Below, one piece after another: positions 9,110 through 31,449 of a DNA stretch of 43,563 bases; the first letter of the stretch is position 1, and every line of letters starts with the position of its first letter. Under the pieces are notes generated by a model. It was not told where the DNA came from and did no database searches. It saw only the letters and a program-made list of their open reading frames with translations. Origin of the DNA: a virus (taxonomy: Duplodnaviria; Caudoviricetes); IMG/VR virus record IMGVR_UViG_3300032162_000171, positions 1 through 43,563 of that record; one strand, written 5' to 3'. A program made the position numbers and the translations under genes.

Positions 9110-9139
9110 TTAGGCAAAAGTGCTGCGCGTTGCGTCGCC
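9110..9139 (-). pseudogene. Displaced, probably original, 3' end of the tail tube gene (GDATRSTFA*)
   Basis: Matches the current C-terminus GDALRSTFA* at 9764..9793. Confidence 0.8.
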
Positions 9140-9152
9140 AACATTCACCACC

Positions 9153-9189
9153 TTGTTACATGTAGCAACTATGTTATAGTTGCTACATG
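9153..9189 (+). promoter_or_regulatory. Promoter of the HNH gene overlapped by a 14-bp-arm palindrome; probable leaderless mRNA
   Basis: TTGTTA-16 nt-TATAGT with extended TG; CATGTAGCAACTAT-GTT-ATAGTTGCTACATG ends on the ATG at 9187. Confidence 0.65.
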
Positions 9190-9762
9190 AAATGTGCATG
9201 TGGGTGTGGCGGTGAAATTCCGCCTCGAAAAACAACGTCGCGTAAAGAAGTCTCTTACTTACAGGGACATCATATGCGCGGAATAAAGCGCCCCTATCTT
9301 GCTTATGTCCCAAAGCCTGAAGAAATCCCTTCGGGACGATGCGAGTGTGGTTGCGAAAGAAAGACACCTATCGCAACCTCGACTGCCCGCAAGCATAGGC
9401 ATTTCAAAGGACACCCGATGCCTTGTGTTACCGGTCACAGCAAGGCTACTTGTGCAACAGGCGCTGCACATGCGGGCGGTAGTTGGAAGGGCGGCCGAAT
9501 CTTCAAGGATGGTTATGTCCAAGTAATCGCTTCGCAGGTCGATTCTTCCAAACGGCGATACATTTATGAGCATCGCGTAGTAATGGAAAAGATGCTTGGC
9601 CGTCCTCTTGAGCCGCACGAGCAAGTTCATCACAAGAATGGTAAGCGCGCTGATAACAGACCAGAGAATCTTGAACTGTGGCGTACAAAGTCGCAGCCCG
9701 CTGGAGTGCGCGACGGCGATTACCATTGCCCGGGATGTGTTTGCGCTAAGCCGCATAAGTGA
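9187..9762 (+). CDS. Free-standing HNH homing endonuclease
   Basis: CxCGCG repeats, [13 protein letters not shown]...[22 protein letters not shown] motif; antisense to the tail operon. Confidence 0.9.
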
Positions 9763-9763
9763 T

Positions 9764-10198
9764 TTATGCGAAGGTTGACCTTAGAGCATCACCAGTAACC
9801 TGTAATTCCGCTGTGAACTTCGACACACCGTTGACGGGCGAGGTCTTTCCGTATTTCATCAGAAGCGCCTTGCCCGTGTACTTCGTCGAGCCTGACGCTG
9901 TCCCTTCGGGGCCGTACTCGAAATCGAAGCCTTCGTTCGACGGTTGCCCGGTCGGTTCACTGACGCCCAAAAGAGCATAAAAGTGCGCGTCGATGGCAGC
10001 GTCCCAATTGCCCTGCAAGCTGATCTTGTTATCCTTGAAGCCGACGATGTAAGTCTTCGCCGCTTGCTGAAAAGTGGTGGTGTCGATGATTTCAGCCTCG
10101 CCCGGAAAATCGACGTTGTTGAGTTTGGTTGAGATGTCCGTCAACACGTTGGCAAGCGTGTCGAGTTTGAAGCTGGTTTTGCGACCATGAATAGCCAT
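9764..10198 (-). CDS. Major tail tube protein
   Basis: 144 aa; EIIDTTTF...YIVGFKD and C-terminal FTAELQVTG typical of siphovirus tubes; position before chaperones. Confidence 0.8.
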   Translation of the reverse strand: MAIHGRKTSFKLDTLANVLTDISTKLNNVDFPGEAEIIDTTTFQQAAKTYIVGFKDNKISLQGNWDAAIDAHFYALLGVSEPTGQPSNEGFDFEYGPEGTASGSTKYTGKALLMKYGKTSPVNGVSKFTAELQVTGDALRSTFA

Positions 10199-10276
10199 GA
10201 TTTGAATTTCTCCTGAGGTGTGAGTTGAAGTCGATTAGCGCGCCCGCGCGCTTGAGATGGGAAGCGGCGGATGCTC

Positions 10277-28754: not shown

Positions 28755-29805
28755 TCTTTTTCTTGTCCTTCACGGCCTTCTTGCCGAAAGCCTGTTCCAT
28801 GTTGCGGCCGCCCATCGAACCGCCTTCGCCTTCGGTTGCACAGATCGCTAGCCGAACGCTTGGCTCGCTCTCCGGCGCAGAGAAAGCAGAGTTGTTGCGG
28901 ATGTTATTTGCAGGACTTCCGACGGCGAGGCGCACGACCGGATTAGGTTCTGTGAGTTTTCCGAGTTCACTCATTTGCTTACGCCAGCGGAACTGCGCTT
29001 TGCGCTCCACTTCCAGATACCACTCGACTTCTGCGCGCAGGTTCTGGTTCGAGCCGCGCACGCTCATTTGACCGAACGTATTCCATCGTCCGAAGCGACA
29101 CGGCCCCATCTCCCAATTCGTCGCGTCTACTGAATGCCACGGCAACGCCAAGATATGTTTCTCGCTGCCGTAACCGAAGCCGTGCAATTTCTTCGGCCAC
29201 ACGCGCGCGAAACATTGCTCGGCGAACTTCAACTTGCCGTCGCCGCGCATCAATGCGACGCCGCCGAGCGCGACTTTCGGATAATCGGCGGCTATGTTAA
29301 TGAGCGCCTCCCACGGCTCGCCGTAGTGAAAGCAGGGAATCGCAGGCACGCCTTGACGCCACATCTCTTCGCAGTTTTTGAGAGACGCGCGCCAATCGCC
29401 GATTACGTCGAGCGCAAACACTTCCGTAAGCTGCGGGTCGGTTTCGAGCAGGTGCTTGGCGGTGTCGATGTAGTCCTGAAGTTTGATTACAGTGCCGGAG
29501 TTGTGAGCGGAGAATGCGCCGGAATCGAGCACCCAATCCCGAAAGTGATAGCGATGGCGATTCTTGAGAAAGCCTTTGATGTACACGAAAGAAACGAGCA
29601 GCGCCGGGGCGAGAATTGTTCCTTTATCTGAGCAATCGTAGTGCATGGGATAGCGGTTTTTACCGGATGCGTTCGAGCATGAGATCATCGCGTGCGTCGC
29701 AGCTAAACGAACGGTAGGCGCGTCGAGTGCTTTGTAGGCATTAACGGGGCCGGGATTGTAAGCGAGGCGCACGCTCGGAGATGATGTTTCTATTTTCGCA
29801 GCCAT
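28738..29805 (-). CDS. DpdA/TGT-like 7-deazaguanine DNA transglycosylase (putative)
   Basis: [38 protein letters not shown]-barrel motifs; adjacent to queC. Confidence 0.75.
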
Positions 29806-29996
29806 TCGACTTGTGAGTGAGTGATAAAGAAAACGGCACCGCAATCCCATGAGCAATCAATCGACGGATCGCAACTCCACGTTTCATCTTCGTGCGTGGT
29901 GATAGCGAAACCTTCGAGGCTTAATCGTTGATGGCACTTCGGGCAATTGATTGCTTTTACTTCCGCGTTGCCCGTCGGTTCGTCTACGGCGTCCAT
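29790..29996 (-). CDS. Small Cys-rich protein (DUF6527-like)
   Basis: CPKC...PSIDC..DC...[20 protein letters not shown] and TAATG overlap. Confidence 0.6.
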   Translation of the reverse strand: MDAVDEPTGNAEVKAINCPKCHQRLSLEGFAITTHEDETWSCDPSIDCSWDCGAVFFITHSQVEWLRK

Positions 29997-30058
29997 TACT
30001 CCTCCGGCGAAGCTGAATCGGGAAGCGGCGCGCCCGCGAGATAGTCGGCGGCCATAAG
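29996..30058 (-). pseudogene. Displaced, probably original, 3' end of the ParB-like gene (LMAADYLAGAPLPDSASPEE*)
   Basis: Matches current LIAADFIA at 30679..30702; GC-rich codons; stop coupled to the next gene. Confidence 0.75.
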
Positions 30059-30062
30059 TTGT

Positions 30063-30644
30063 TTAGAATCGCTTCGCGTTGACTCCCCATGTTGGAGTTG
30101 CTTTATGGCAGGAAACGCAGAGTGTGCGCCCGTTTGAAAGATCGAAGCGAAGTTCAGGGTAGTTGCATTGTGGTTTGATATGATCGGCATGAAGTCTGCC
30201 GCCGTGTTTACCGCAATGTTGGCAAGTGTAGTAATCACGCATAAAAACCGCTTTACGCCATGCGCGATATTCTGAGGTGAAGCGGATATATTCGTCGGTC
30301 TTTGTCTTGCCGCCTTTCCAGAAGTGATGTCGCTCACCGGATGGACGACCTTTACGATGTGAGGCGTTGAAACACTCTCGACATTTACCGCCACGATGGT
30401 TTGGTTTGCGCTCTCCGCAGCTAGAGCAGTCAGGGCCACGAGAAGCAGAGCGCACAAGACGTATGCGCCATTTTGTATGATTCCGCGTGTAAATTGCTGC
30501 GGGCGTGAGACCTTCCGAAGCAAACATGGCAGCAATATCCATAGCGCGATGCCCCTCTGTAAGAAGTTGGCGGACACGCTTCCACGTCTCATCTGATACT
30601 GGTGAGATGAAACGTCCCGGATTGAAACCAATGTTTCTTGCCAC
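30063..30644 (-). CDS. HNH endonuclease
   Basis: HHFWKGG, WRKAVFMRDYYTCQHCG...LHADHIKP...SNGRTLCVSCH. Confidence 0.9.
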   Translation of the reverse strand: MARNIGFNPGRFISPVSDETWKRVRQLLTEGHRAMDIAAMFASEGLTPAAIYTRNHTKWRIRLVRSASRGPDCSSCGERKPNHRGGKCRECFNASHRKGRPSGERHHFWKGGKTKTDEYIRFTSEYRAWRKAVFMRDYYTCQHCGKHGGRLHADHIKPQCNYPELRFDLSNGRTLCVSCHKATPTWGVNAKRF

Positions 30645-30648
30645 ATAG

Positions 30649-31449
30649 CTATTTTAACCCTTCTTCCAAGTGAGGGTTAGCTATAAAATCCGCTGCGATG
30701 AGTTCCATACAGCGGCCTTCGGTCAGCGAGGATTCGCCGCAGATCAAGCGAATGCGTTCGATGGCTTGGTTAATAATGAGGCGCTGGTTCGGCGTGCAGA
30801 TGATCGAGCAGTCATCGCTCGCTTTATCGCCCGCTTCTAAATTTTCGTGAGGGTCAGAACCGGCGCGCTCTTTATTGTTTCCGGCAGCATCCGTCTCGCT
30901 GCTTGAGCCGTTGCCCGATTCTTGAGCGGAGGGCGGCGTCCAGTCGGCGGCGAGAAAGGGCGAGATGTCATGTTCCTCGAAGCCGAGATCATCGTTCGAG
31001 AATTCCAACTCCGTGCCGTCGAATTCTTCTTTGAGGCTCCCGACGTTCGACGCGAGTTGCTCGAAGTCCCACGCCGATGAAAGCCCCGACGCGTTATCGG
31101 AAATCGCATAACCCGTCGCCTCGCCGCCTTCGAGTGCCGACACGACAATCCAGACGTGCGTCCAGCCTTCTTCTTCGGCGGCTTCGTGCGTGCCATTGCC
31201 CTTAAGAATCTTGCCCGCGCGGTCAACGACAATCGGCGTTTGCTGGCCGCGCCGTCTGAGGGACGCTCGTATGTGGCGAACGTTCTTTTCAGGATGAAGG
31301 CGCGCGTTTTCAGGATCGCGCGTGAGCGAATGAAGCGGCACGATCAGGCGCGACGCGTCCGGGTGCGTCGGCTCGCCGTGATAGAGCGGCCATACATACG
31401 CCTCAAAATCGAGAGGCTTAGTGGGTTGGATTTTCTCTTCCCTTGCCAT
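30649..31449 (-). CDS. ParB/Srx-like protein at the head of the DNA-modification cluster
   Basis: DPENARLH...SLRRRGQQTPIVVD...ILKGNGTHEAA...DNAS...WD. Confidence 0.85.
   Translation of the reverse strand: MAREEKIQPTKPLDFEAYVWPLYHGEPTHPDASRLIVPLHSLTRDPENARLHPEKNVRHIRASLRRRGQQTPIVVDRAGKILKGNGTHEAAEEEGWTHVWIVVSALEGGEATGYAISDNASGLSSAWDFEQLASNVGSLKEEFDGTELEFSNDDLGFEEHDISPFLAADWTPPSAQESGNGSSSETDAAGNNKERAGSDPHENLEAGDKASDDCSIICTPNQRLIINQAIERIRLICGESSLTEGRCMELIAADFIANPHLEEGLK

Follow-up and report, generated by a model that had tools for sequence, protein, structure and literature searches.

Intact inteins whose nuclease is encoded by an antisense or out-of-frame gene were described by Gosselin et al. 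(2025) for LAGLIDADG, VSR-like and endonuclease VII-like nucleases, with invasion by a free-standing nuclease as the proposed origin. Homing of the WHO elements of Torulaspora and Lachancea involves no splicing: the elements replace the host gene's 3' part, and resistant alleles are reported (PMC7282813; bioRxiv 10.64898/2026.08.13.744650), and in fungal mitochondria (Allomyces atp6; Glomus atp6, atp9, cox2 and nad3) mobile endonuclease open reading frames (ORFs) bring a foreign C-terminus (PMC3630166). Here, both arrangements are considered for the 43,563-nucleotide virus record IMGVR_UViG_3300032162_000171 of IMG/VR (hereafter the window), a 43.6-kb provirus record whose minus strand carries the genes for head, tail and packaging. 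Four intact ORFs, H1 to H4, encode HNH proteins, all above the Pfam cut-off: H2 and H3 lie inside two inteins of the terminase large subunit gene (terL), and H1 and H4 lie at the ends of the tail tube gene and of a ParB-like gene, respectively. A sequence-only reading of this DNA had placed the four genes in or at these targets without any target being broken, and these layouts are confirmed; its suggestion that the combination had not been described before was overstated, because each route has been published in another form (Gosselin et al. 2025; fungal mitochondria; WHO elements). The window is a clear, compact phage example of both routes in one small phage, not a new system. The four genes are probably independent homing endonucleases that spread without cost to the genes they occupy, two in terL inteins and two as cassettes with a recoded gene end.

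The terL precursor is a single open frame of 1193 codons (19340..22921, minus strand, ATG at 22921), corresponding to 471 residues without both inteins. Intein 1 (21773..22810, minus strand; 346 residues) lies in the Walker A motif, between GPAG and TGKS, and intein 2 (19421..20551, minus strand; 377 residues) in the terL nuclease motif, between NDHG and CDG, 25 codons ahead of the stop. Both have the motifs that we take to make up the class 1 set, namely Cys1, the block B His, block F, the terminal His-Asn and a Cys, Ser or Thr at +1 (C..TKDH..HN followed by T in intein 1, C..TGNH..HN followed by C in intein 2). The Pfam Intein_splicing match reaches 7.5e-19, and the class 1 motifs are kept across 16 aligned inteins. 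The AlphaFold model of intein 1 shows confident beta ends, predicted as a Hint fold, around an unstructured middle (pLDDT <50 at residues 95-311), its best structural matches being inteins (RecA/DnaB inteins, E 5e-5). Moreover, a reads run (X3) holds a relative of the window phage at roughly 90-95% identity, and one X3 contig skips intein 1 exactly, giving an empty allele with a precise junction; over intein 2 the X3 cover is absent, but no X3 contig bridges the junction. Among terminases that often cannot be aligned elsewhere, the splicing domains show 26-46% identity, and the intein 1 cassette is found in terminases without significant pairwise likeness outside the site. Since related splicing domains occur in otherwise unrelated terminases, these comparisons point to a horizontal spread of the intein cassette. 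Splicing out of the filler-bearing inteins from terL is predicted from the models.

Inside intein 1, H2 (21916..22596, plus strand) is an antisense gene with a helix-turn-helix and an HNH_3 domain, preceded at 21862..21915 (plus strand) by a promoter-like site with a perfect TATAAT and by a Shine-Dalgarno-like GAAGGAG. The intein frame across H2 contains 0 stops where 5-7 are expected (P 0.0003-0.0008). Among 26 IMG/VR loci with H2 relatives, several of which are near-copies and most of which come from one terminase group, 24 hold the gene antisense and in the same register within a stop-free terL frame, and 23 of these 24 have the intein end motif. For 19 relatives together with the window (near-copies L015, L017 and L022-L024 excluded), the HNH frame has a median dN/dS of 0.13 and the intein frame one of 2.4, based on the 113 of 190 pairs that were usable, the other 77 being saturated or too close. 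This difference shows that selection acts on the nuclease protein in the H2 family, whereas all that is required of the intein frame is the absence of stops. Also, GGAG stands just ahead of the start in 15 of 20 H2 relatives and a TTGACA/TAYACT pair in three, in upstream DNA that is also constrained by the intein frame. In the Pectobacterium phage Ymer, site and layout are those of intein 1 and H2; a like match to H2, at the level of the match only, comes from further records, six of Pectobacterium phages and one of a Dickeya phage. In the Ymer record (L296, OP748252.2, 1252-3516), terL is annotated as hypothetical and the antisense HNH gene in its Walker A intein is unannotated; the text of the Ymer paper has no mention of an intein or an HNH. 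Overlapping nuclease genes in inteins escape annotation, Ymer being one example.

H3 (19464..20273, minus strand), an HNH_3 gene with Cys-rich repeats, lies inside intein 2 on the same strand as terL, in the +1 frame. Across H3 the intein frame has 0 stops versus 2-4 expected (P 0.006-0.07, with outside codon tables and before correction for several frames), and the synonymous-shuffle test for H3 alone gives 0.054, which is not significant. Its open frame is thus only suggestive on its own, and the nested layout of H3 rests on its relatives. H3 matches 24 cultured-phage records; among ten relatives fetched, four are +1-frame genes within an intact terL intein whose own frame has 0 stops (TJE1, Highwayman, phiCDHM19 and LS06-2018-MD07), one lies in a broken terL (phiCD119), and five are free-standing beside terS/terL, with 3-10 stops in the corresponding frame. 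In the records of the first five (L297-L300, L302), the +1-frame HNH genes are unannotated and the phiCD119 region appears as two annotated ORFs. A further H3-type site comes from two identical IMG/VR loci; in L030/L031 (716-3826) another terL carries an intein in which, judged by eye, a LAGLIDADG-like motif seems to lie in frame, and a second intein that holds an H3-like gene in +1. Another candidate relative, L032, was dropped because only the Cys-rich part matched. The H3 family mixes free and nested members, well-supported branches requiring at least two switches between these states, and by these sequences fits the model in which free-standing nucleases are the source of intein nucleases. 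Both further nested HNH genes and purifying selection on them had been named beforehand as what the proposal depended on, and both are found: the former in the 24 IMG/VR loci and in cultured phages such as Ymer, TJE1 and phiCDHM19, the latter in the H2 family. The earlier statement that the intein frame is kept open across two nuclease genes holds as well, with H3 as the weaker case.

These inteins resemble those of Gosselin et al. (2025) in being intact and often located in terL, in encoding the nuclease separately, on the other strand or in a different frame, while the intein frame stays open, and in showing signs of horizontal spread, which here are the related splicing domains in unrelated terminases and the empty close relative. 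However, the main text of that work has HNH nucleases only in frame, whereas the window, from a likely Acidobacteriota phage, has HNH_3 genes antisense (H2) and in the +1 frame (H3); unlike the cases given there, selection on the nuclease frame is shown for the H2 family. A literature search of partial coverage returned no paper on an antisense or out-of-frame HNH gene in an intact intein, and the supplements of Gosselin et al. may list HNH cases. Fractured genes also have a separate nuclease gene inside the intein, being a free-standing nuclease between the halves of a split intein (PMC2677866); the intein is contiguous here, and a fractured-gene identity for terL is ruled out by its one 1193-codon frame. 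For the ShiLan domain, a hidden out-of-frame HNH in phage methylases, the host frame likewise stays open across an HNH gene in another frame, but there is no splicing domain in the account given (PMC11855218). Here, on the other hand, the filler is in an intein, and the frame that spans H4 is out of frame with the ParB-like gene; a ShiLan-type identity was rejected, as H2 and H3 are in inteins and the tube and ParB-like genes stop before H1 and H4. The cultured phages with these layouts allow the expression of antisense and out-of-frame nucleases to be tested, and they bear on whether free-standing nucleases give rise to intein nucleases, as Gosselin et al. propose.

Replacement of a gene's 3' end, with a new end in frame and the native end displaced, is clear for the ParB-like gene (30649..31449, minus strand; identity from PHROGs). 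Its last 15 codons (30696-30652) are divergent from the family and use rarer codons, and directly behind its stop lies H4 (30063..30644, minus strand; start codon uncertain), an HNH gene of PF01844. Beyond H4 follows a stranded ParB-like tail, AADYLAGAPLPDSASPEE with its stop (29996..30052, minus strand), which holds GGAGG and whose stop overlaps the next start (TAATG). The tail is duplicated over about 15-18 codons, AADFIANP.. in the gene (30696-30649) versus AADYLAGAP.. beyond H4 (30052-29996), with p=0.008 (4 of 500 shuffles). The family consensus end, ADYLAGAP, is that of the stranded tail, and in five loci of HNH-free homologs the stranded tail is nearer (12-20 of 27 nt) than the in-gene tail (8-14 of 27). 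Also, an open frame of 216 codons without a family match (29996..30646, minus strand), with its ATG 2 bases behind the ParB-like stop, spans H4 entirely and extends into the stranded tail. Three nulls put the probability of such a frame arising by chance at 0.008-0.19 (0.19 by shuffles; 0.008-0.08 with outside codon tables, before multi-frame correction); the frame may serve as a bridge for ribosomes heading to the next gene, or may reflect chance; the sole distinct H4 relative has 10 stops in the corresponding frame, so it is not a family trait. ParB-like loci were found by alignment scans, a single-protein scan having given none, and in the relatives L044, L045, L127 and L130 the ParB-like gene is directly ahead of the transglycosylase-like gene.

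For the tail tube (major tail protein) gene (9764..10198, minus strand; identity from PHROGs), such a replacement is likely. H1 (9187..9762, plus strand), a free-standing HNH_3 endonuclease gene, runs antisense to the tail operon with its stop 1 base from the tube stop, and on its other side lies a stranded tube-gene tail with ordinary codon use, GDATRSTFA with its stop (9110..9139, minus strand; 9139-9110 as read). It duplicates the in-gene end, GDALRSTFA with its stop (9793-9764), and 0 of 500 shuffles are as good; the two tails differ at 14 of 30 bases. The last 9 codons of the gene (9793-9767) are rare ones, with a codon score of 0.33 versus 0.70 for the stub and 0.75 for the preceding ten codons, and are rarer than almost any 9-codon window in 28 other genes. 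In two loci of HNH-free homologs the stranded tail is nearer (23-24 of 30 nt) than the in-gene one (17-19 of 30). Moreover, sequence and folding place a sigma-70-like promoter (9153-9180) within a 17-nt inverted repeat over the H1 start codon (control region 9153..9192, plus strand); this repeat holds the start codon and the -10 box, and its hairpin has a z of -4.3 versus shuffles, whereas those at the H2, H3 and H4 starts are no better than shuffles (z -1.2 to -1.6). Considering the four genes together, own expression signals are seen by sequence for three. An X3 contig skips 9107-9763, and so is without H1 and the stub; one contig of another run, X1, which is possibly the window's own source, spans the H1 locus without any difference. 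A short tandem repeat behind the stub (9080-9106), variable in the X3 relative, is followed by a GC-rich hairpin (9042-9072). Two H1 relatives (L035, L039) are antisense at tail-gene ends, as H1 is, and four (L036, L037, L038, L041) stand directly behind short genes of 140-180 aa, alike in L036 and L038, with no stub.

The arrangement at H1 and H4 corresponds to that of the fungal mitochondrial ORFs, which also have an in-frame replacement 3' end, a nuclease gene and, displaced behind it, the native end, which is closer to empty relatives (PMC3630166). Those ORFs differ in being mitochondrial, with LAGLIDADG named for atp6 and tails of 17-80 codons, compared with phage HNH genes, one of them antisense, and tails of 9-18 codons here. 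By analogy, H1 and H4 may also resemble the WHO elements (PMC7282813) in replacing the 3' part of the host gene, with homing without splicing being proposed for them; the WHO elements, however, are LAGLIDADG/intein-related and HO-related, target FBA1, replace half of the gene and form clusters of up to nine, whereas H1 and H4 are single HNH cassettes. T4-like phages have free-standing HNH (mob) and GIY-YIG (seg) endonucleases by conserved genes, with a hairpin over the translation start and a promoter inside it (PMC2988022), as predicted for H1, and an intact HNH domain with a patchy presence beside a conserved gene is found here as well. A duplicated gene end is unmentioned in the available text of that article, where the string "duplicat" occurs 0 times; the literature search, again with its partial coverage, gave no paper on duplicated gene ends at phage HNH genes, and neither layout is described in the available text of PMC10448857 and PMC3653736. 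If gene-end replacement holds in phages, a homing mode of yeast and mitochondria would extend to bacterial viruses, and the final codons of phage genes could be foreign, which would be a warning in reading them.

The mechanism proposed for independent homing endonucleases builds on the observed layouts, the open frames, the selection on the H2-family nuclease frame and the empty alleles for intein 1 and H1. In the first route (H2, H3), the middle of the intein would be read as about 220-270 residues of unstructured filler, predicted to be spliced out with the intein, and the nuclease, presumably made from its own promoter and ribosome site, would cut intein-free terL, after which intein and nuclease would be copied in. 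In the second route (H1, H4), the cassette would consist of the recoded tail and the HNH gene, the old tail being left beyond; as with WHO elements and the fungal mitochondrial ORFs, the nuclease would attack the native tail; the recoded one would be spared and would at the same time supply the end of the protein. Occupied alleles would thereby be immune, through the intein or the recoded tail. Four such elements would be present in one genome because conserved phage genes collect them, not because they form one system. A bolder version is offered only tentatively: phages may have a splicing-free, WHO-like class of HNH homing in which a short recoded end repairs the gene, gives immunity and holds the translation control of the nuclease, in which the frame 30646-29996 carries ribosomes to the native stop and keeps the downstream DNA-modification operon coupled, in which nuclease loss leaves immune alleles (as in X3), and whose nucleases, already pre-adapted, were repeatedly captured by terL inteins as overlapping genes.

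Several observations weigh against this account of homing without cost. No full promoter was called for H3 in its upstream sequence, where TATAAT and AAGGGAG are found, and the distance between the window's H2 and its relatives is too great to give this gene a separate dN/dS value. Besides the window's own copy (L124), no HNH-bearing allele was found in 160 ParB-like loci, nor a second one in 85 tube loci, most loci of both sets being distant homologs; H1 and H4 may therefore be one-off insertions rather than active homing. A search for duplicated C-terminal peptides at free-standing HNH genes, as had been suggested for checking the idea, gave 0 of 11 IMG/VR loci and only 1 of 15 cultured-phage loci, and thus the second route is rare or the stubs decay. 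The one case is Bacillus phage IEBH, with an HNH gene of the H1/H2 subfamily between two dUTPase tails; in its record (L292, EU874396.1, 636-1614) the HNH gene overlaps the dUTPase end and is fused in frame to a second, downstream copy of the dUTPase tail. Duplicate-tail scores at L037 (p 0.008) and L039/L040 (0.03-0.04) were rejected, as they did not end at a stop or came from shadow ORFs. Finally, the tube gene of the HNH-free X3 relative ends in the in-gene form, at most 6 of the last 30 bases being different, which requires either a later loss of the HNH gene or a stub that is foreign cargo.

This last point is what would be expected if the in-gene tails were the lineage's own, the HNH cassettes had been inserted just past the stop and the stubs were cargo from an earlier host phage. 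In X3, the in-gene type of end is joined directly to the intergenic DNA beyond the stub; the diagnostic Leu of the in-gene tube tail is shared by P0037, a 93% identical protein, and by one more of 22 tube homologs, and among 19 ParB-like homologs, 2 end in an ADYLADP-type sequence that is more like the in-gene tail. Such an origin nonetheless leaves the abrupt fall of the tube tail to rare codons (0.33 versus 0.75) to be explained. Like a native end, the ParB-like stub also includes the next gene's ribosome site and overlapping start, and both stubs are closer to distant HNH-free homologs. We therefore regard cargo stubs as rather improbable. In the preferred reading, the stretch from one stop to the other, with the cassette, was lost in the X3 relative and an immune allele remained; it is the stranded tails that have the look of native ends, and those within the genes that seem recoded. 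The proposed replacement of 3' ends by recoded codons stands for the ParB-like gene, where the consensus is the stranded tail, and agrees with the rarer codons of the in-gene tails, but the direction of recoding is less sure for the tube gene because of the end kept by its HNH-free close relative. Compared with homing, it is quite unlikely that the nucleases are kept because they are useful to the phage, as packaging cofactors or in attack on co-infecting phages, with the overlaps being mere genome compaction. The strong purifying selection, the free-standing H3 relatives adjoining terminase genes and a role of HNH proteins in packaging mentioned in PMC11855218 would agree with a benefit, but the close relative does without intein 1 and H2 and without H1, the spread over unrelated terminases is patchy, and the other tube and ParB-like loci compared, mostly distant homologs, have no HNH gene there.

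The remaining alternative, that one HNH lineage moved within the genome and used both routes as one system, is very improbable and largely refuted. It draws on H1 and H2, which have the same best PHROG family, 45% identity over 71 aa and, as first noticed from the sequence, the motifs WKGGR and EHRxVMEKxLGR in common. In a tree of 46 HNH_3 cores, however, a branch with only 62/97 support sets H2 and the antisense nested genes apart, H1 is placed among free-standing genes, and H3 belongs to a distinct, starred clade in which both nested and free genes occur; the bootstrap had not settled, and Ymer (L288), Javan74 (L290) and the H4-type L308 were left out. A sister relationship of H1 and H2 is rejected (p-AU 0.005), and H4 belongs to another Pfam family (PF01844) than HNH_3. 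The shared motif marks a broad subfamily, as H1 and H2 each match more than 110 cultured-phage records; H3, like H4, is of a different family. The idea that one family uses both routes survives at this broad level and fails in the narrow sense; since the motif-sharing H1 and H2 are not sisters, the four HNH genes are, by these comparisons, four separate invasions and not one system.

For the tube and ParB-like proteins, the nearest named homologs are found in bins of Acidobacteriota, including a Pyrinomonadaceae chromosome (79% identity), and thus the host is likely of the Acidobacteriota group. The region 24418-29856 (minus strand) encodes GTP cyclohydrolase, QueE-, QueD- and QueC-like genes and a tRNA-guanine transglycosylase-like gene, with a glycosyltransferase between them, presumably a 7-deazaguanine DNA-modification cluster; the nucleases would need to cut modified DNA. 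Elsewhere, the window has a second ParB-N gene (7067-8005, plus strand), an HD-domain gene (40098-40805, minus strand) and an ArdC-like anti-restriction gene (42473-43312, plus strand). The X3 relative also skips 15507-16307 (the C-terminal part of a 392-aa head gene and the end of the next gene) and 17016-17534 (a 186-aa gene), which may be further variable inserts.

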